From positions 87,521 through 151,520 of the forward strand of contig JARGOF010000008.1 in NCBI GenBank assembly GCA_029212415.1: a stretch of DNA of 64,000 nt. The letters are read 5' to 3'. The position numbers and the translations under genes are program-made. Under the pieces are notes generated by a model that worked only from the letters and a program-made list of their open reading frames with translations, ran no database searches and was not told the DNA's origin. Below are positions 1,724-32,403 of the stretch, piece after piece (position 1 is the first letter of the stretch; each line of letters starts with the position of its first letter). The DNA comes from Rhizobiaceae bacterium. GTDB taxonomy: Bacteria > Pseudomonadota > Alphaproteobacteria > Rhizobiales > Rhizobiaceae.

Positions 1724-2464
1724 TCATTGCGCTGTGGCCGCAAGTGCTTTCAGGCAGGCCTGGACAAAACCGGATCGTGTGTCCGGCGCGTCCAGCCCGC
1801 GCGGTTCATAAACGTGGCGCTGAAGAAAATATCCGGTGAGGCGAAAAGCATCGGCCAGACTTTCCTGGTCAGCAGACAGGTTGCTGCCACGCTCCAGAAA
1901 TGCCGGTAGTGCCAGCATCTTGTCGGCCCAGGGCAGACCGGCCTCATGACTGACGGCACGTCCGGTTTTGGGCGAAACGAAGCGCAATCTCTCAGTCGTG
2001 CCGGTTGCCGCGCATTGGTTCAAATCGAGCCCGAAACCCAGGTCTTCCAGCATGGCAAGTTCAAAACGGATAAACAGTTCCCCGGCGCTGGCCGGGTGAT
2101 GCAGGTTCTCCAGAATGATTCCCAGCGTCTCATACAGGTGCGGATGCGGGTCGCGCTCCGGCAACAGGCGCAGAAGCGCCGCCATTGCCTGCACCCCATA
2201 GACCGCCATGGCGGTCTCCATCAGCCGTGCGGCGCGCAATTGGGTCGGTTCGATCTGATAGATGCCCAGATGCTGATCAAGGCGGGCGCGCCAGACCAGT
2301 GACACGCTGTTTCCCGGCTGCAGTACGGGTTGCATGCGCCGGGAACGTCCGCCACGCACAAGGCCCAGATGACGACCACGTTGCTGTGTCATGATCTCGG
2401 CGATAACGCTGGTCTCTCCGTGTCGTCGAACACCGAGAACTATGCCTTCATCCTGCCATTCCAT
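1724..2464 (-). CDS. recO: DNA repair protein RecO
   Basis: [18 protein letters not shown]-terminus, CAATG and [10 protein letters not shown] motifs; follows era. Confidence 0.97.
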
Positions 2465-2482
2465 GCTGTGAAATTGCGCCTG

Positions 2483-3442
2483 TCAGGTGGGAAATTCAAG
2501 CCCGATCTCGCGATAGCGCTCCGGGTCATTGCCCCAATTGCTGCGCACCTTGACGAACAGGAACAAATGCACCGTTTGGCCCAGGATCTCGGCAATCTCC
2601 TTGCGCGATCCCTGGCTGATGTGCTTGATGGTTTCGCCGTTCTTGCCAAGCAATATCTTCTTGTGACCATCACGCTCGACATAAATGACCTGTTCGATCC
2701 TGACACTGCCGTCCTTGCGCTCTTCCCATTTTTCTGTCTCCACATGGGAAGCATAGGGCAATTCCTGATGCAGCCGCAAATAGAGTTTTTCACGGGTAAT
2801 TTCGGCGGAAAGCTGACGCATCGGCAGGTCCGAAATCTGATCCTCCGGATAGTACCAGGGACCCTCAGGCAGGGTTTTGGCAAGATAATCCAGCAGGTCC
2901 TTGCAACCGGCGCCCTTGAGCGCCGAAATCATGAACGTTTCGTCAAATGGGCAAATTTCATTGGCTTTTGCCGCCAGGGCCAGCAGCGCCTCATGTCTTA
3001 CCCGGTCGATCTTGTTGAGCAACAGGACCTTGGGTCGCTTCACGTCGGCCAGGCTCTCCAGAATGTTCAGCGTGTCGCCGACCAATCCGCGTTCCGCGTC
3101 AACAAGAAGAAAAATGATATCCGCATCATGCGCATTGCCCCAGGCCGATGTCACCATGGCGCGATCCAGCCTGCGCCGCGTTTTGAAAATGCCCGGCGTG
3201 TCGATGAAAACAATCTGCGCATTGTTGTGCATGACAATGCCGCGCACAATGGATCGCGTCGTCTGCACCTTGTGACTGACGATGGAAACTTTCACTCCAA
3301 CGAGTTTGTTGAGCAGCGTTGATTTGCCGGCATTGGGCGCACCGATCAGCGCCACAAACCCGGAATGGGTCGGGCCTGCGGCTGCTTCGCCAGTATCGAC
3401 TACTTTTTCAGTCTCTACGTCTTTTCCAGTCTCTTCAGTCAT
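2483..3442 (-). CDS. era: GTPase Era
   Basis: GAPNAGKSTL, VSHKVQTTR, DTPG, NKID and KH domain; start at 3442 overlaps the rnc stop (ATGA). Confidence 0.98.
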   Translation of the reverse strand: MTEETGKDVETEKVVDTGEAAAGPTHSGFVALIGAPNAGKSTLLNKLVGVKVSIVSHKVQTTRSIVRGIVMHNNAQIVFIDTPGIFKTRRRLDRAMVTSAWGNAHDADIIFLLVDAERGLVGDTLNILESLADVKRPKVLLLNKIDRVRHEALLALAAKANEICPFDETFMISALKGAGCKDLLDYLAKTLPEGPWYYPEDQISDLPMRQLSAEITREKLYLRLHQELPYASHVETEKWEERKDGSVRIEQVIYVERDGHKKILLGKNGETIKHISQGSRKEIAEILGQTVHLFLFVKVRSNWGNDPERYREIGLEFPT

Positions 3443-23921: not shown

Positions 23922-24132
23922 TGTCAGCGCGATCACAGGCAACGCCTGGACGGAAGTTCCCTTGCATAGCCGTTTCTGGAAAATTTCACTCCCGTAATTC
24001 GGTTGGATGCGCTGATTGTTGCATCCTGCACTCATGGGTGTGTAGCAAGGACCGAATTGCTGGAAATTTGCTATTTGTAGTCGATCATCAAACCAATTGA
24101 CGCTATGTATTCAGCGATGGAGGCATAGTGAG

Positions 24133-25803
24133 ATGAGGACTGGTAACCGGACAGACATTCAGCGAATTCCCGACAGGATTGTCTTCAAGCAGACTGTCGG
24201 GGCGCTACTCATATCCTTCGGCTCCGTTCAGATAATGAAGGAATATTATGGGCTGCCTGACCTGATTTTGCTGTTTGCGGTTGTTTTATCAATTTTTCTA
24301 TACGGCCTGTTCATCAAAAACGGCGACCACCACAAACCGTACAATTCCTATTTCCAATTATCCGTCGTCCCGATCATTGCTGTCGGCACCTATTGCTATT
24401 TTGTCCTGAAATTCGGTTTCTTCGACTTGTCGGCAATAGCCGTCCATCTTCAACTGGGGCTTGATGCGCCGGATGTCGTGCACAGCTATTTCCTTGAGGC
24501 TTTCAATATAGCCCTTGGGGTTGCGCTGTTCATTGCAGGAAATGCGATTCTGGTCAGAAACAACAGCAAATACAGAGGCTTCGAGCGTATTGTATCCCTG
24601 CTTTTTTTCGCGGCTCTGACCTTCTGGATTGTCTCGAATTCAAATCTTCTGGCGAAGGACAATGACGTAAGACTTGCGGACCTGTATAGGGAACCCACTC
24701 CACTCTCGTCAGACTCTGCACCGCTGAAGAATTTCATACATGTCTATCTGGAAAGCACAGAAGGCACCTATTTTGACGAGAGCCAGTTTGGCGATACGAT
24801 GGCACCGCTCAAACCGCTTGTTTCGCGCGGCCTGAATGCAACCAACATGGTCCAGATTCACAACACAGGCTGGTCATCTGCCGGGATGACGGCCGCCAAT
24901 TGTGGAGTCCCGCTTTCACCGATCGGACTTGTGGCGTTCAACAATTTTGACTGGCTGGACGCGTTCCTTCCCTCCGCTGTCTGCCTGGGTGATATCCTGA
25001 ACAAAAAGGGTTACCAGCTTTCCTTCATCCTTGGGGCAAATGCAAGATTTTCAGGCGTCGATCATTTATACATCAAACATGGTTTTGATGATGTTCTGGA
25101 TCTGGACCATTTCAAACGCAGATACCGTGACGATCCGATGGCACTGGCCCGGAGCAAACAGGATTGGGGACTGCAGGATGACATTGTTTTTGATGCAGCC
25201 CTTGAAGTCCTGCGTGCACAAAATGCGAAGGCAGCACCATTTGGGCTCGTCATTGAAACCATTGGCGGACATGCACCAGACGGGTTTTTATCTCCACGTT
25301 GCTTCAGCCAGACGGACATTATGGCCATCGAAATCAATGTCCTGCGTGCAGTGAAGTGCACGAACTGGTTGTTGGCACAATTCCTTGCTGCGGCAGAGCG
25401 CGACGGACTGCTGGAGAACACAATCGTAGTTGTGCAGAGTGATCATCTGTCCATGAAAAACAGCATTTACAGCCAGCTTACCAGCCGTAAACGCAGAAAC
25501 CTGTTTTTCCTGTTTGGTGAAGGTATCGAGGCGCGCAGCCACACCAATAAGGTTTCGCCAGTGGATGTCTATCCGACCTTGCTGGAGGCAGTTGCCGTGC
25601 GCCTGCCCGACAGCAGGGCAGGACTTGGCGTTTCCATGCTATCCAAAAGGAAATCCTGGATTGATATCCATGGCGAGGCATTGTTCAACGCCATGATCCG
25701 TTCTGATCGGGAATTGAACGCTCGGTTATGGACACGGTCAGATGCCAAATCCGTGGCTGATGCACCTGCAATGAGCGACGCCTCAACCGGGAACACCCAC
25801 TGA
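24133..25803 (+). CDS. LTA-synthase/sulfatase-fold transferase, OpgB (phosphoglycerol transferase I)-like
   Basis: Four N-terminal TM helices, YLES, TGWSSAGMTAANCGVPL, CLGDIL, WGLQDD, GGHAPDG, QSDH; start uncertain (24097-24235). Confidence 0.8.
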   Translation: MRTGNRTDIQRIPDRIVFKQTVGALLISFGSVQIMKEYYGLPDLILLFAVVLSIFLYGLFIKNGDHHKPYNSYFQLSVVPIIAVGTYCYFVLKFGFFDLSAIAVHLQLGLDAPDVVHSYFLEAFNIALGVALFIAGNAILVRNNSKYRGFERIVSLLFFAALTFWIVSNSNLLAKDNDVRLADLYREPTPLSSDSAPLKNFIHVYLESTEGTYFDESQFGDTMAPLKPLVSRGLNATNMVQIHNTGWSSAGMTAANCGVPLSPIGLVAFNNFDWLDAFLPSAVCLGDILNKKGYQLSFILGANARFSGVDHLYIKHGFDDVLDLDHFKRRYRDDPMALARSKQDWGLQDDIVFDAALEVLRAQNAKAAPFGLVIETIGGHAPDGFLSPRCFSQTDIMAIEINVLRAVKCTNWLLAQFLAAAERDGLLENTIVVVQSDHLSMKNSIYSQLTSRKRRNLFFLFGEGIEARSHTNKVSPVDVYPTLLEAVAVRLPDSRAGLGVSMLSKRKSWIDIHGEALFNAMIRSDRELNARLWTRSDAKSVADAPAMSDASTGNTH

Positions 25804-25892: not shown

Positions 25893-26993
25893 TCAATCAA
25901 TGGCGCCAGCGCCACCTTCGTCTTCCTCGCCTTCAGGCGTGACGTCCAGCACGCGCGCATGCATCGTGACCTTTGCAGGTTCGGGCATGCAATTGCTCAT
26001 GCATGGTTCCAGTCCGGCGGCATATTGTGGCTCGTCCTGACGATTATCGTCTATGAAGTTTGCTTCATTTGGCAGACGCACTTCAGTGAAGTTGTCGCTC
26101 GACAATTCGAAATCTTCGTCAGTGACAATATCATTCAAATAGAGCAGATAGGCCGTCAGGGCGTAAACGTCATCATCGGAGAGTGACTGGGCATTGCCAA
26201 AGGGCATGGCGCGCTTCACATAATCAAACACGGTGGACAGATAGGGCCAGTAGGAGCCAATGGTCTTGACGGGCCGATCGTCGGTCAACGTTCCCTGCCC
26301 ACCAGCCAGGACAGGCCAGCGACCTTCGCCTTCGCCGAAAGAGCCATGGCAGACGGCACATTGTTCATCAAACAACTCACCACCCCTGGCAACCGTGCCG
26401 CTTCCGGCAGGCAGACCCTGCCCGTCCGGCCGTATGTCTATATCCCAGGCGGCAATTTCTTCCGGCAGCGCCGGGCGCCCGAGATGATAGGTTCCGTGGT
26501 CGGCCATCGGTGCATCAGCAACTGGGGCCGCTGCCACCTTTGTTTGCGGCTTTTTCTCTTCGTTCGCAGCAGCGTTATCCGGCTTTTCTGCTTCCTCGGT
26601 TGCTTCGCCCGAAAAACTCTTCAGATAAGCGATGACATTTTCGACATCCTTGTCCTTCTTCAGGCCGGCAAAGGACATCTTCGTGCCCTTGATATAGGCC
26701 TTGGGTTTTTCAAGATATTTCCCCACCGTTTCGTCATTCCAGACCAAGCCATCAGCACCGGCAGCCTTCATCGACTTGGAATATTTGAAACCGTCAAGCG
26801 AACCGGCCGTCCGCCCGAATACGTCGTTGAGCTGCGGGCCGACCTTGTTTTTGGCATTGTCACCCACAGCATGACAGGATGCGCACTTTCTGAATACTTT
26901 TTTGCCCGCATCCACGTCCTGAGCAAATGAGGGAACGCCGGTTACAATCAGCAACCCGGCAACTGCACCAAACAGCTTAAGAGATTTCGACAT
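25893..26993 (-). CDS. soxD: Diheme cytochrome c SoxD with cytochrome c2-like domain at the N-terminus
   Basis: CASCH in c2-like domain, CAVCH in the LGRPALPEEIAAWD...KTIGSYWPY domain; start overlaps the soxC end by 17 bp. Confidence 0.92.
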   Translation of the reverse strand: MSKSLKLFGAVAGLLIVTGVPSFAQDVDAGKKVFRKCASCHAVGDNAKNKVGPQLNDVFGRTAGSLDGFKYSKSMKAAGADGLVWNDETVGKYLEKPKAYIKGTKMSFAGLKKDKDVENVIAYLKSFSGEATEEAEKPDNAAANEEKKPQTKVAAAPVADAPMADHGTYHLGRPALPEEIAAWDIDIRPDGQGLPAGSGTVARGGELFDEQCAVCHGSFGEGEGRWPVLAGGQGTLTDDRPVKTIGSYWPYLSTVFDYVKRAMPFGNAQSLSDDDVYALTAYLLYLNDIVTDEDFELSSDNFTEVRLPNEANFIDDNRQDEPQYAAGLEPCMSNCMPEPAKVTMHARVLDVTPEGEEDEGGAGAID

Positions 26994-28269
26994 TTTCTGT
27001 CTCTCCATCTGTACGAACCTGCCAGGTTTGTATGCCATTGTTATGGTAAATCGAGTTTTCGCCGCGCGCTGCTCTGAGCTCATTTTTTGTCGGCTGAACA
27101 TTTCCGAGTTCATCAATGGCCCGCGATTGCAGATACATCTCGGACCCGTCCCAATTGAACTCATGATAAAAACGGTGCAAGGATTTGGACAGGCTCGGAC
27201 CATCGAGGCGCGCCGTCTGCCAGTTGCGGCCGCCATCCAGAGACACGTCAACCCGCTTTATGCGGCCATGACCCGACCAGGCAAGCCCGGTCAATACGGT
27301 GTGTCCGCGTCCATGGGTGATGGGCATTTGCGGGCTGGGACTGGTGATGACCGATTTGACATCCATTGCCCAGGTAAAACGGCGCGCTTTGCCGTTTGCC
27401 AGGAGGTCGGTATATTTGGACGTTTCTTCACGGTGATGCCAAGGCTGATCACCCACTTCGATGCGGCGCAACCATTTAATCCACATATTGCCTTCCCAGC
27501 CGGGAACGACAAGGCGGATGGGGTACCCCTGCTCGGGTCGCAGGGCCTCTCCATTCATCTTGAATGCCACAAGGCAATCATCAAGCGCCTTGTCGAGCGG
27601 AACCGAGCGGGTCATGCCGGAGGCATCTGCGCCCTCAGGAAGCAGCCAGGCAGCATTGGGCTTCAATCCCGCTTCCTGCAACAGCAGCTTCAGCGGGATG
27701 CCGGTATACATGACATTATGCACCATACCGTGGGTGAACTGGCAGCCGTTCAATTGGGAACCCCGCCACTCCATTCCGGAGTTTGCAGCGCATTCCAGAA
27801 AATACACATGGTTTTCACGCGGAAAACGCATCAAATCCTGCATGGTGAAGACAAGGGGATTGTCGACAAGGCCGTTGATCATCAGGCGATGATCAGCCGG
27901 ATCGATTTGAGCCACACCACCATGATGACGCTCAAAACACAGTCCGTTCGGCGTGATGATGCCGTCGAGCTGATGGATTGGCGTAAAATTGATGGAGGAA
28001 ATCGGATCGGCTGTCAGCCAGGGCACGTCACGGCGCACCACATCAGCTTCAAATTCGGAAGGAACCCCATAGGGCGCGGCATCAACACCATCACCCAACA
28101 CCTGATTCCACTCCTGAATCTCGGTGATCAATGGATCGGGCGTGGCCGCGACTGCGGCGCGGGCGCCAAGTGCGCTGGCGGCGACACCACCGGCGACAGC
28201 AACGCCCCCGCTCAAAAACGAGCGACGGCTTTTATTCGGGTGGGTTTTATCTTGCGATTGATCGGACAT
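26977..28269 (-). CDS. soxC: Sulfane dehydrogenase molybdoprotein SoxC
   Basis: Tat motif SRRSFL, FERHH, FLECAAN, GWEGNMWIKW. Confidence 0.97.
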   Translation of the reverse strand: MSDQSQDKTHPNKSRRSFLSGGVAVAGGVAASALGARAAVAATPDPLITEIQEWNQVLGDGVDAAPYGVPSEFEADVVRRDVPWLTADPISSINFTPIHQLDGIITPNGLCFERHHGGVAQIDPADHRLMINGLVDNPLVFTMQDLMRFPRENHVYFLECAANSGMEWRGSQLNGCQFTHGMVHNVMYTGIPLKLLLQEAGLKPNAAWLLPEGADASGMTRSVPLDKALDDCLVAFKMNGEALRPEQGYPIRLVVPGWEGNMWIKWLRRIEVGDQPWHHREETSKYTDLLANGKARRFTWAMDVKSVITSPSPQMPITHGRGHTVLTGLAWSGHGRIKRVDVSLDGGRNWQTARLDGPSLSKSLHRFYHEFNWDGSEMYLQSRAIDELGNVQPTKNELRAARGENSIYHNNGIQTWQVRTDGETENVEIS

Positions 28270-28388: not shown

Positions 28389-30080
28389 TCACATTCCGAC
28401 AACCTTTACAGCGTCATTCTTCGGCATATTCACAACACCAAGGCGCGTGATGTAATTTTCCATCAGATCGTAGATCGCTGGTCCTTCCACGCCTTCATTC
28501 ACCGAGGCCCAACCAGCAACAACATAATTACGAGCCGGATCAATCGGTTCACCGGTTTTCAACATGGTCATATTGGTGATGCGGTTGCCGATATTTTCCT
28601 TGGGAGCACAGGTATACCCCATGCCGCCGACACGAACCATGTCACCACCCTGCTGGAAAAAGGGATCCTTGTTGAACAGGTTGTCACACACATCTTCCAG
28701 TATATCCTTGATTTGTGCGCCCGAGAATTCCAGCCGGTAAACCGACGGATAGGACATTGATGTCTGTGTATAAAGATCATCGACCGTGATATTCTGTCCC
28801 GGCAACAGGGTCGTTCCCCAACGAAACCCGGGGCTGAATGAGAGTTCAGCGTCCCGCTCTTCAATCAAGCCCTGGCAAATCAGGTCGTCCCAGGTCCCGT
28901 TGAAATTGCCACGACGATAGAGAAGTCCCTCGGTTTTTGCCAACACCCGATTGCATTCCGCCTCATAGGGCGCACGGACCTCATCAATTTTTGCAGCCAT
29001 TTCCGGGTCGGGGGTAATCACATCGGAAAACACCGGGATAAGTGTGGAATTATAATCGACGACCTCGCCGTTTTTCACCTCGAGATCGACCCGTCCCAGG
29101 TATTTGCCATGGGATCCGGAAGACAAGACCAGCGTTTTGCCAATCTTGATGGCTTCAGGCACTGCATCATGTGTGTGGCCCGTCAGGATGACATCAATAC
29201 CGCTGACAACCGTGGGCAATTTCTGATCAACATCAAAGCCGTTGTGGGAAAGAAGAACAACAATTTCGGCGCCCGCGGCGCGCGCTGCATCCACATTGGC
29301 CTGCAGCACATCCGGGCGAATACCGAAGGACCACTCGGGAAACATCCAGCGCGGATTGGCTATCGGCGTGTAGGGCATGGCCTGCCCAATGACCGCAACC
29401 TTGTGCCCGCCTTTTTCGTAGAAGGCCGTATGCTCAAAGACCGGCTCATCCCATTCCGTATCAAAGATGTTGCTGGCAAGAAACGGATATCCCATCTCGT
29501 CAATCAGTTCGAGGACACGATCCTCACCAAAGGTGAACTCCCAGTGCCCAACCATGGCGTCGGGTTTCAAGAGCTTCATGCAATCGACCATGTCCTGGCC
29601 GTTGGTCTTCAGCGACGTATAGGAGCCCTGCCAGGTATCTCCTCCGTCGAGGAACAAAACAGAGTCATCTCCGCGCTCGGCACGGATTGCCTTGACGAGG
29701 GTGGCTGTGCGGTCAAGCCCACCCAGCTTCCCATAGGTTCTGGCCAGATTGACGTAATCAACCATGGTGTGGGCATAGGCCAACGGAGAACCGGCCGGAA
29801 TATTGAAATGTTTGAGAAAGGCCTCACCCACCAGATGCGGTGGCACGCCTTCAAAGGCCCCTACCCCGAAATTTTCTGATGGCGGGCGAAAATAGAGGGG
29901 CTTCAACTGCGCATGCACATCGGTAAAGTGCAGCAGCGTTACCTTGCCCTTGGCATCAAATTTGAGCAGATCATCCTGCGTAAGCCGCTGCTGAGCGGCA
30001 ACCCGGGTCAATCCACCCGCATAGCCGGTTGTTGCCGCCACGACTGCTGACCACTGGAGAAAATCACGTCTGGAAAACAT
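28389..30080 (-). CDS. soxB: Thiosulfohydrolase SoxB
   Basis: Tat MFSRRDFLQ, TDVHAQ, DGGDTWQG, GHWEFT, SHNG, GHTHD, GFRWG. Confidence 0.97.
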   Translation of the reverse strand: MFSRRDFLQWSAVVAATTGYAGGLTRVAAQQRLTQDDLLKFDAKGKVTLLHFTDVHAQLKPLYFRPPSENFGVGAFEGVPPHLVGEAFLKHFNIPAGSPLAYAHTMVDYVNLARTYGKLGGLDRTATLVKAIRAERGDDSVLFLDGGDTWQGSYTSLKTNGQDMVDCMKLLKPDAMVGHWEFTFGEDRVLELIDEMGYPFLASNIFDTEWDEPVFEHTAFYEKGGHKVAVIGQAMPYTPIANPRWMFPEWSFGIRPDVLQANVDAARAAGAEIVVLLSHNGFDVDQKLPTVVSGIDVILTGHTHDAVPEAIKIGKTLVLSSGSHGKYLGRVDLEVKNGEVVDYNSTLIPVFSDVITPDPEMAAKIDEVRAPYEAECNRVLAKTEGLLYRRGNFNGTWDDLICQGLIEERDAELSFSPGFRWGTTLLPGQNITVDDLYTQTSMSYPSVYRLEFSGAQIKDILEDVCDNLFNKDPFFQQGGDMVRVGGMGYTCAPKENIGNRITNMTMLKTGEPIDPARNYVVAGWASVNEGVEGPAIYDLMENYITRLGVVNMPKNDAVKVVGM

Positions 30081-30140
30081 ATCAACGTCCTCGCTGTTTA
30101 CGATCTGCCTGCGGAAACCACCGCATCTTCCGGAATCCGG

Positions 30141-30177
30141 ATACAAAAAGGGCGGCATTTTTCTTCAAATGCCGCCC
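30141..30177 (-). terminator. Intrinsic terminator between soxA and soxB
   Basis: Perfect 11-bp arms GGGCGGCATTT / AAATGCCGCCC with TTTTTGT tail on the minus strand. Confidence 0.75.
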
Positions 30178-30189
30178 CCAAATTGATTG

Positions 30190-31047
30190 TCAGTTACGCA
30201 CGGCCGGCGTTTCGACAGAAAGCCCTTGTCCGCGTGATGCGACATAGAGTTCAAGCGCGACAAATTCGTCGGAACCACGCTTGTAGGGTTTTGCACGGAT
30301 ATTATCCATGCAGCCCTTGAAGCGACGGTGTATGGAGCCCAAGCCGTTCCATTTCAACCGATAGACAGGGAAGCCATTGATCTGGCCCTGACTCAAATGG
30401 TCAGCGCGGATCATGTTGCCGCTATTGTCCTCGTGGCAATTTGAGCAAGACATGTCCAATTGCCCCACCCGTGTGTAATACAGGTCCTTGCCCTTCTGGA
30501 ACCACGGCGTCATCTCACCATCGGTCTGCACGTCAACCGGCATGCCACGCGACTGCAACCCAATGAGTGCAGTCATGCCCAACATCGCTTTGGCTTCCCA
30601 TTTCCATGGCTCAGCCTGCATCCGTTCGGTTCGACACTCATTGATGATATGTTCAAGTGTTTCCGGTTTTCCGATCTCAGCATTCCAGCGTGGCAATTTC
30701 GCACGAAGTCCGGCAAATTCCTCAGCCCCACCTTCATGGCAGGATGCACAGGACTTGCCTGCCGCGCCTTCGACGACCTCGAACTGTTCAATCGCCTGGT
30801 CAACAGCGCCAAATGCCGGATTCTCGAAATCATCGGCCTGCAGCGATTGCGTTTCATCACTGCGATAGCGCCAGCCGGAATAAAGCGTTTCAAATGGGCT
30901 GTCTGGCGCCGCAGTGACCTCAGTCACGATTTCCTGGCCGTCGATGATCAGTTGATCTTCATCGGGATCTGCCTGCGCTGCCAGACCCATGGTGAGCGAT
31001 AAACCAATCACACCTCCGACAACCATGCTTTTTCTTATCAAATTCAT
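30190..31047 (-). CDS. soxA: Diheme SoxA
   Basis: CASCH and CSNCH hemes, active-site RRFKGCM; GGGAGG 8 nt before ATG 31047. Confidence 0.96.
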   Translation of the reverse strand: MNLIRKSMVVGGVIGLSLTMGLAAQADPDEDQLIIDGQEIVTEVTAAPDSPFETLYSGWRYRSDETQSLQADDFENPAFGAVDQAIEQFEVVEGAAGKSCASCHEGGAEEFAGLRAKLPRWNAEIGKPETLEHIINECRTERMQAEPWKWEAKAMLGMTALIGLQSRGMPVDVQTDGEMTPWFQKGKDLYYTRVGQLDMSCSNCHEDNSGNMIRADHLSQGQINGFPVYRLKWNGLGSIHRRFKGCMDNIRAKPYKRGSDEFVALELYVASRGQGLSVETPAVRN

Positions 31048-31114
31048 TTCCATTCCTCCCGTGGAACGCCAGATTTGGATTGATCAGTCAGTCAAACGGA
31101 CCTGCCCAAAATGG

Positions 31115-31441
31115 TCAATCCAAAGCGATCTTTTTCTCGGTATCGTAAACCTTGCCATCATCACCGGTCCAGACGAACCGGAATGTGCCCGCCTCCATCA
31201 CCTTTGCGGTGAATTCGAAATAGGGATTTGCCGAGATCGCCGGATCAATGTCACACGAGAACACTGGCGTACCATTAAAAAAGCACTCGAACTTGTTGAT
31301 GATATTACGCGGGATTACGTTTCCCTCTTTGTCCTTGCGCTGACCAGACTCCATATTGTGACTGATCAGGGTCTTGATGGTGATAACCTCACCGGCAGAC
31401 GCAGACTTGGGAACTTTAACGCGGGGTTTTGCTGTTGCCAT
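31115..31441 (-). CDS. soxZ: Sulfur carrier subunit SoxZ
   Basis: KTLISHNMESGQRKD, SANPYFEF. Confidence 0.96.
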   Translation of the reverse strand: MATAKPRVKVPKSASAGEVITIKTLISHNMESGQRKDKEGNVIPRNIINKFECFFNGTPVFSCDIDPAISANPYFEFTAKVMEAGTFRFVWTGDDGKVYDTEKKIALD

Positions 31442-31462
31442 TTTCAATTTCCTCCGAGGCCG

Positions 31463-31918
31463 TTAGCCGCCACAACCGCCGATGGTCACTTTGACCTCGC
31501 GCTTGTCGATATACACTTTTCCGGTGCTGGTTTTGGCAACTGCCACAACGTTCTGGGTCTTCGCCAGCCGCATGCGGGTTGTTGCAGATGCTTCACCGCT
31601 CATGGGCGTAAAGTTGAAAACCACAACTTCCGGATTTGGATTGCCTTCAGCATAGATCGCCACGGATTCCACGTAGTCATCAGCCGTCATAGGACTTTCA
31701 ACGCTTACAGAAACGGGAACGGTATTGCCATTTTCGGCGATCTCCGGTGCCTTCAACGTCATCATTCCGCTTTGGGGTTCCGCCCCTCCACTGAACGCCT
31801 GCACAGCAGCACTGGTATCTTCCGCATTTGCAAGTGCCGGACCAATACGCATGCCTGCCAGCGTGAAGGCAATTGCACCCGTGGAGAATGACAGGGCTTG
31901 TCGTCTTGTCAGTTTCAT
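31463..31918 (-). CDS. soxY: Sulfur carrier protein SoxY
   Basis: Tat signal, APEIAENG, C-terminal VTIGGCGG swinging arm. Confidence 0.98.
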   Translation of the reverse strand: MKLTRRQALSFSTGAIAFTLAGMRIGPALANAEDTSAAVQAFSGGAEPQSGMMTLKAPEIAENGNTVPVSVSVESPMTADDYVESVAIYAEGNPNPEVVVFNFTPMSGEASATTRMRLAKTQNVVAVAKTSTGKVYIDKREVKVTIGGCGG

Positions 31919-31941: not shown

Positions 31942-32403
31942 CTATTCTTTGAGCGTACCCAGATAGGCAACCACATCTTCAACATCCTGAGCGGACAATA
32001 TGGTTTTGCCCTCAAATTTTTCGGCTGTCCGAGCGCCGTTTTTTACCCGGTAGAATGAGGGCATGATGGTCTCATCACCCAATATGATTTTGGAATTCAC
32101 AACAATTGCCCGCAACTCGGGCACTTCCCAGCGGTCGGCAACACCATCAAGCGGCGGGCCGACTTCACCATGAAACAATTGCTCTTTGATTTCTGCATTG
32201 ACGTGGCAAGCAAGGCAATTGCCAAGTTTGCGGTTGACAAACACTTCCCTGCCTCTGGCAGCATCACCGGGCTCACCGGTCAATGACATCACTATTGTTT
32301 CTTCTTCAAACTTGACATCATCGGGTGCGATCGTTCCCGCCCACGCGGCTGTCGGAGCAGCAGCAAGAAACAATGCCATCATTAAATTCGATTTCAAAGA
32401 CAT
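31942..32403 (-). CDS. soxX: Cytochrome c SoxX
   Basis: GNCLACH, GEVGPPL, TIMPSF. Confidence 0.96.
   Translation of the reverse strand: MSLKSNLMMALFLAAAPTAAWAGTIAPDDVKFEEETIVMSLTGEPGDAARGREVFVNRKLGNCLACHVNAEIKEQLFHGEVGPPLDGVADRWEVPELRAIVVNSKIILGDETIMPSFYRVKNGARTAEKFEGKTILSAQDVEDVVAYLGTLKE

Follow-up and report, generated by a model that had tools for sequence, protein, structure and literature searches.

Can the two haem domains of SoxD be carried in either order and, if so, how did a SoxD with the reversed order arise? This question is raised by a gene located in a stretch of DNA of 64,000 nucleotides from a Rhizobiaceae bacterium, hereafter called the window. SoxD forms with SoxC an alpha2-beta2 complex that carries out the six-electron oxidation of SoxY-bound sulfane sulfur, and SoxCD determines whether the Sox pathway takes thiosulfate fully to sulfate. 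To our knowledge, the sole SoxD characterised both biochemically and structurally is the Paracoccus form, in which the SoxC-binding haem-1 domain (D1) comes first and a cytochrome c2-like domain (D2) follows. The window gene encodes a c2-type domain followed by D1, an order referred to below as swapped.

The sox cluster and the anatomy of SoxD

The soxD gene is the last of a minus-strand soxXYZABCD cluster, whose gene order is that of the annotated Paracoccus locus. The features of the gene and of its neighbours are the following (window coordinates, with protein residues in parentheses):

25893..26993, minus strand: soxD coding sequence, 366 codons plus stop, from the ORF list and its translation (P0002)
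26922..26993, minus strand: signal peptide (residues 1-24), likely cleaved after SFA, read from the sequence
26607..26921, minus strand: N-terminal c2/c552-type class I cytochrome c domain (residues 25-129), from Pfam and PDB-sequence matches
26871-26885, minus strand: haem motif CASCH of the N-terminal domain (residues 37-41)
26484..26606, minus strand: Ala/Glu/Pro/Lys-rich linker (residues 130-170), variable in length and sequence in the homologue alignment
25920..26483, minus strand: SoxD1 (haem-1, SoxC-binding) domain (residues 171-358), from the 2xts_B match and invariant residues
26346-26360, minus strand: haem motif CAVCH of D1 (residues 212-216)
25989-26003, minus strand: motif CMSNC of D1 (residues 331-335)
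25896..25919, minus strand: acidic C-terminal tail ending in GAGAID (residues 359-366), from the tail comparison of homologues
26977..28269, minus strand: soxC, molybdenum subunit and SoxD partner, from a 2xts_A match of 598 bits over residues 41-429
28389-30158, minus strand: soxB, from the ORF list and translations
30190-31053, minus strand: soxA, from the ORF list and translations
31115-31447, minus strand: soxZ, from the ORF list and translations
31463-31918, minus strand: soxY, from the ORF list and translations
31942-32403, minus strand: soxX, from the ORF list and translations

The stop codon of soxD occupies positions 25893-25895 and the ATG lies at 26993, where the methionine of MSK... 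is the start conserved in homologues. The copy of the window gene present in the protein collection (P0003) has 371 aa and starts five codons upstream (MERQK-MSK..., window 26993-27008); the homologues all start at the MSK/MLK methionine. The first 17 nt of soxD are the 3' end of soxC, whose product matches the crystallised SoxC across its whole mature length. No soxE follows soxD in the window, the next gene being a convergent sulfatase-like ORF (24097-25803).

In the Pfam search, PF00034 was found at residues 27-126 (86.7 bits) and PF13442 at residues 200-283. In the PDB sequence search, D1 (residues 171-358) aligned to residues 5-190 of chain 2xts_B with 231.8 bits (E 1.3e-67), and residues 27-129 matched free class I cytochromes, namely the c552 of 8ed4_I (126 bits) and the cytochrome c2 of 1co6_A (103 bits). 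No NCBIfam model was matched by the window SoxD at its cut-off; the best match, CycA c-550 of Bradyrhizobium, covered the N-terminal domain only, with 118 bits against an equivalog cut-off of 240. The presumed axial methionine of the N-terminal domain is M106, and the ligand region of D1 reads AMPFG with M263. The N-terminal domain has the traits of a class I cytochrome c2/c550/c552, that is an N-terminal CxxCH, a distal Met ligand and PF00034, and the protein as a whole has those of a SoxD, with SoxD1 homology, a soxC-coupled position in the sox cluster, and CxxCH, Met-Pro and CMxxC motifs. It departs from the D1-then-D2 layout of the Paracoccus type, the c2-type domain being at residues 27-129 and D1 at residues 171-358, and also from SoxE, its N-terminal domain lying outside the SoxE clade described below and its second domain being D1 instead of the second haem domain of SoxE.

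All the motifs quoted in the initial annotation are present, in the N-terminal half (CASCH at 37-41, GTKMSFAGLKK at 103-113) as well as in the C-terminal one (LGRPALPEEIAAWD at 171, CAVCH at 212-216, KTIGSYWPY at 243-251 and EPCMSNC at 329-335). D1 is indeed the last domain, as had been proposed, but the protein does not end at EPCMSNC, since a further 31 residues come after it and the alignment to 2XTS_B extends to residue 358.

The reference order in Paracoccus

The soxD genes of P. pantotrophus DSM 11072 and P. ferrooxidans were located by tblastn of a plasmid/chromid collection, and the opposite order, D1 then c2, was read from the DNA of both. The translated SoxD of P. pantotrophus (L081:5917-7068, 384 aa) consists of a signal, D1 (28-213), an Ala/Pro-rich linker of about 70 residues and the c2-like D2 (284-383), which is the reference order given in the initial annotation. 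The central claim of that annotation, a reversed order with respect to the characterised P. pantotrophus SoxD, is therefore confirmed by the Pfam and PDB matches together with the translated Paracoccus protein. The two proteins are built from the same two domain families, as had also been claimed: the N-terminal domain of the window SoxD scores 122 bits against Paracoccus D2, compared with 95 bits against the N-domain of SoxE.

The annotated locus of P. ferrooxidans comprises soxXYZABC, a 383-aa "c-type cytochrome", a 236-aa cytochrome (SoxE), and flavoprotein and hydrolase genes; its soxC and soxD overlap by 17 nt, as in the window. The window and P. pantotrophus proteins both start with MSKSL, which says little about ancestry because these five codons lie within the soxC overlap and are set by the soxC frame.

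Distribution of the swapped order

With the window SoxD as query, a word-indexed search of 5.8 billion proteins gave at least 8000 candidates, the best 120 of which were inspected. Almost all of these 120 are 360-380 aa long, with 60-76% identity to the window SoxD and 90-100% colinear with it, and more than 100 full-length colinear protein clusters (at 90% identity) with the swapped order occur among the matches listed. The named sources of the colinear matches are Hoeflea, Roseibium/Labrenzia, Thalassospira, Nitratireductor, Oricola and Kiloniellaceae; one colinear match carries the IMG label SoxD.

A scan with D1 only, on one genome per GTDB species, returned 436 confirmed relatives, the best 80 of which were analysed by placing both domains with phmmer on stop-to-stop ORFs. 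The c2-then-D1 order was found in 55 of these 80 species genomes with the closest D1, distributed over at least 11 named families of Hyphomicrobiales and Rhodospirillales and the gammaproteobacterial Granulosicoccaceae. Two further swapped-order copies, L016 and L035, are broken by frameshifts on MAG contigs. Read from the longest ORF alone they would mislead, appearing single-haem or D1-then-c2; the candidate readings of L016 as a single-haem SoxD and of L035 as a D1-then-c2 protein inside the swapped clade were both rejected, each being a frameshifted MAG copy of the swapped form.

Two even samples of genomes were also analysed. Of 400 genomes from the window's order, 84 had a strong D1 match and 8 of these 84 were colinear with the whole window SoxD. 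Of 400 genomes from the class, the 29 best SoxD loci comprised 22 single-haem and 7 D1-then-c2 forms and no swapped one. A profile-free scan of 1.8 billion representatives, with roughly 1600 D1 homologues at E <= 1e-10, returned mostly single-haem forms, some D1-then-c2 forms and some with D1 followed by another haem domain, along with one swapped-order representative cluster and two D1-D1-c2 proteins among the matches listed. The single-haem form (D1 only) is the majority form in the genomes sampled, and the swapped order is a minority architecture overall, established within one clade.

No description of a swapped-order SoxD was found in a full-text literature search, with the primary Paracoccus papers outside its scope; many of the literature matches for SoxD concern the animal SoxD transcription factors. 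The swapped order of this well-known protein is apparently undescribed, and sequence databases already contain it in large numbers. The initial annotation had foreseen that the order might prove to be common and described, or to be that of the reference SoxD: it is common in databases, but it was not found described and it is not that of the reference.

As far as the window's own family is concerned, no SoxD match was found in the 12 other genomes sampled, which leaves room for horizontal acquisition, and the sox island may have entered this lineage by that route. The sole near copy of the window D1 (96% in D1) belongs to a Rhizobiaceae MAG (L001).

Evolutionary origin of the N-terminal domain

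Trees were built by quick LG+G4 searches and rooted at the midpoint; support for the key nodes is modest (94 and 93). In the D1 tree (163 rows) all 56 of the 56 swapped-order rows fall in one clade of 74 rows (SH-aLRT 94), which also holds genuine single-haem SoxD of Breoghania, Rhodospirillum, Aurantimonadaceae, Afifella and Rubrimonas. The Paracoccus-type rows form a separate clade of 26 rows (SH-aLRT 93), and the branches below both dihaem clades are single-haem. Parsimony on this tree gives a single gain at each end of D1, C-terminal and N-terminal, with several subsequent losses; a single N-terminal gain of the c2-type domain fits the tree, although gain and loss are not confidently separable on a midpoint-rooted topology. 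The SoxD of Granulosicoccaceae is nested among alphaproteobacterial sequences, which implies gene transfer. Moreover, the sub-clades of Roseibium, Thalassospira, Hoeflea and Phyllobacteriaceae recur in both the D1 and the c2 trees, indicating that the two domains have been inherited together since their fusion.

Two SoxD relatives from metagenomes, P0008 (623 aa) and P0010 (599 aa), are D1-D1-c2 proteins with three haem motifs. In the D1 tree the two D1 copies within each protein are mutual closest relatives, which suggests separate duplications or internal homogenisation.

In the c2-domain tree (138 rows, 108 columns) the N-domains of SoxE form their own clade (SH-aLRT 95), while the N-terminal domains of swapped SoxD, the D2 domains and the free cytochromes are not separated from one another. 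Constrained topologies were compared by AU tests, in which the groups were defined after a first view of the tree, so that the p-values are indicative only: on the short alignment of 108 columns neither the N-terminal domains as a single clade (p 0.16) nor the N-terminal domains joined to D2 (p 0.14) was rejected, whereas joining the N-terminal domains to the SoxE N-domains costs 91.6 log-likelihood units (p 0.019). The most similar free cytochromes are proteins of 120-150 aa with 60-71% identity to the N-terminal domain. The nearest free c2 genes were considered as sox-cluster precursors of the fusion and rejected, their contexts being non-sox: one lies beside a pyruvate-phosphate dikinase gene and the other beside a xanthine/CO-dehydrogenase-like operon.

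The alternative that survives best, although we consider it unlikely, is an intragenic permutation, by which an ancestral Paracoccus-type D1-D2 protein would have been rearranged, for example through a tandem duplication after which the first D1 and the last D2 were lost, so that the present N-terminal domain would be the old D2. The 122 bits shared with Paracoccus D2 agree with such a history, but the similarity to free c2 cytochromes of non-sox contexts is as high or higher (60-71% identity), and these cytochromes are interleaved with both groups in the c2 tree. A tree uniting the N-terminal domains and D2 is not rejected (AU p 0.14), yet on the D1 tree single-haem lineages separate the two dihaem clades. 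The signal peptide start and the soxC overlap common to both forms would also be expected from a permutation; the MSKSL start, being dictated by the overlapping soxC codons, is not independent evidence. Finally, P0008 and P0010 show that internal duplications do happen in soxD, but no D1-D2-D1-D2 or c2-D1-c2 intermediate was present among the best 150 representatives.

A derivation from SoxE, with a SoxE-derived domain fused to SoxD and compensating for the loss of soxE, is far less probable still. The initial annotation had offered it as a second possibility, regarding the N-terminal domain as SoxE-like and possibly a substitute for the missing soxE. It is true that no soxE follows soxD in the window and that the N-domain of SoxE falls, in a broad sense, within the same c2 family (95 bits). 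Nevertheless, the SoxE N-domain clade (SH-aLRT 95) excludes nearly all the N-terminal domains, the union of the two groups carries the likelihood cost given above, and a SoxE-like dihaem gene lies directly downstream of soxD in 19 swapped-order loci. Furthermore, the same genome encodes, on contig C61, a SoxE homologue, a dihaem cytochrome of 261 aa with 46% identity to Paracoccus SoxE (E 5e-64), followed by a SoxF-like gene for a flavoprotein of the flavocytochrome-c-sulfide-dehydrogenase-like type with a Tat-type signal:

L085 (G000:C61:185437-188832), ORFs 1399-2184 and 2207-3394: soxEF-like pair, away from the sox cluster; the second ORF runs off the locus end

This homologue and the 19 loci with both genes argue that the N-terminal domain is no replacement for SoxE, and neither part of the earlier suggestion, a specifically SoxE-like domain or a stand-in for soxE, is upheld.

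Conservation, linker and integrity of the gene

Across 50 homologues with 61-75% identity, C37, C40, H41 and M106 of the c2-type domain are invariant, and so are C212, C215, H216, M263, P264, C331, M332 and C335 of D1, with M106 and M263-P264 as the likely axial ligands. The CMxxC motif has been named as typical of in-cluster SoxD in a 2026 study (PMC13500833). The linker varies freely in length and sequence and stays in frame in 50 of the 50 aligned homologues; in 57 swapped-order ORFs the gap between the two domain matches measures 27-67 residues. An AlphaFold2 model based on the 50 homologues, with a mean pLDDT of 61 and a poor D1, gives pLDDT values of 70-92 for the c2 domain and below 50 for residues 131-176, and the linker is predicted to be disordered. 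The invariant haem motifs and ligands, the freely varying linker and its low pLDDT point to purifying selection acting on a pair of haem domains that a flexible tether would join.

The C-terminal tail (window 25896-25919) belongs to an acidic stretch that follows DVTPE in both the single-haem and the swapped-order forms, where the last two residues are usually a hydrophobic one and then Asp/Glu (VD, ID, VE).

Hardly any weight can be given to an artefact, whether an erroneous assembly or reading frame that merged a c2 gene with a single-haem soxD or a wrong start codon. Frameshifts do occur in some MAG copies (L016, L035), and separate c2 genes beside single-haem soxD exist (L102, L119). Nevertheless, an uninterrupted and colinear frame is present in the window as well as in 55 independent species genomes, among which are cultured type strains (e.g., Hoeflea marina DSM 16791, Thalassospira profundimaris WP0211 and Roseibium aggregatum), there is a single signal peptide with no internal start or ribosome-binding gap, and the linker keeps the frame in every aligned sequence.

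Proposed mechanism and significance

Taken together, the window gene probably encodes a functional SoxD in which a c2-type electron shuttle is tethered to the N-terminal side of D1, an architecture that would be the marker of a clade, gained once and later lost in part. In the proposed mechanism SoxC would oxidise the SoxY-bound sulfane sulfur, and the electrons would pass from molybdenum to haem-1 in D1, by analogy with the 2XTS complex, and from haem-1 to the c2-type domain, which would swing on its disordered linker of about 40 residues and deliver them to the respiratory chain, through a terminal oxidase or a soluble cytochrome c. If the second domain is a flexibly tethered shuttle, as proposed here, either end of D1 could carry it, and the swapped order probably changes the working of the enzyme little. 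According to its title, the study of Bardischewsky et al. (2005, Biochemistry 44:7024), cited in PMC13500833, found the haem-2 domain of Paracoccus SoxCD dispensable for catalytic activity; as far as the title goes, this agrees with a peripheral shuttle for which the site of attachment matters little.

Three arrangements of the c2-type partner were observed: it is encoded by its own gene behind a single-haem soxD, fused to the C-terminal side of D1, or fused to the N-terminal side. This Rosetta-stone pattern points to one functional partnership. The split version of the dihaem protein, a single-haem soxD with a separate single-haem c2-type gene, was observed in L102, L119, L105-L107 and L078; in L102 and L119 the c2 gene comes immediately after soxD or overlaps it.

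From an evolutionary perspective, the swapped form would be the mark of one SoxD clade of marine Hyphomicrobiales and Rhodospirillales, transferred into Granulosicoccaceae. Its most likely single origin would be the insertion of a c2-type domain into a single-haem SoxD, behind the signal peptide and ahead of D1, followed by loss of that domain in some lineages, such as Breoghania, Rhodospirillum and Aurantimonadaceae. That the N-terminal placement is itself adaptive, leaving the conserved acidic tail of D1 free as it is in single-haem SoxD and positioning a c2/cy-like domain for direct delivery to a terminal oxidase without a soluble carrier, in convergence with the Paracoccus fusion, seems to us doubtful; if true, it would mean a self-contained and differently wired link from SoxCD to the oxidase, and two convergent Rosetta-stone fusions.

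The finding refines a known system and reveals no new one. A clade of marine sulfur oxidisers of considerable size, with cultured members in Roseibium, Thalassospira, Hoeflea, Pelagibius and Nitratireductor, has the opposite order, and the swapped, split and single-haem forms together support the notion of the second haem domain as an interchangeable tethered electron shuttle. These SoxD variants are natural material with which to probe where the electrons of SoxCD exit. In addition, an annotation aware of domain order would put an end to the bare "c-type cytochrome" labels given to swapped SoxD.

Comparison with known systems

The closest characterised relative is the SoxD of P. pantotrophus, known from the SoxCD1 structure (PDB 2XTS). 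The likeness extends to D1 (231.8 bits), the c2-type domain (122 bits) and the Sec-type signal starting with MSKSL; in both, soxD shares 17 nt with soxC, the CMxxC motif is present and the two domains are separated by a flexible linker rich in Ala and Pro. The order of the domains is D1 then D2 in P. pantotrophus and c2 then D1 in the window SoxD, and the linker has about 70 residues in the former but about 40 in the latter. Furthermore, the window D1 keeps a free acidic C-terminal tail, whereas in the Paracoccus-type SoxD the linker to D2 takes its place.

The single-haem SoxD has in common with the window protein D1, the pattern of the C-terminal tail and the position after soxC, and in Breoghania, Rhodospirillum, Afifella and Aurantimonadaceae it belongs to the same D1 clade. 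It differs in being without the c2-type domain, some loci having in its stead a separate single-haem c2 gene (L102, L119). SoxE resembles the window protein in that its N-terminal half is also a class I domain of the c2 type (95 bits against the window domain), but it forms a separate clade in the c2 tree, has a second haem domain of its own and is encoded alongside swapped-order SoxD in many loci, as it is elsewhere in this genome. Finally, the soluble and tethered alphaproteobacterial cytochromes c2, c550, c552 and cy (e.g., PDB 8ed4_I, 1co6_A and the cy domain in 6xkx_p) belong to the fold family of the N-terminal domain and agree with it in haem motif and Met ligand region; the free relatives checked are encoded in unrelated gene contexts, whereas the window domain is covalently joined to SoxD.
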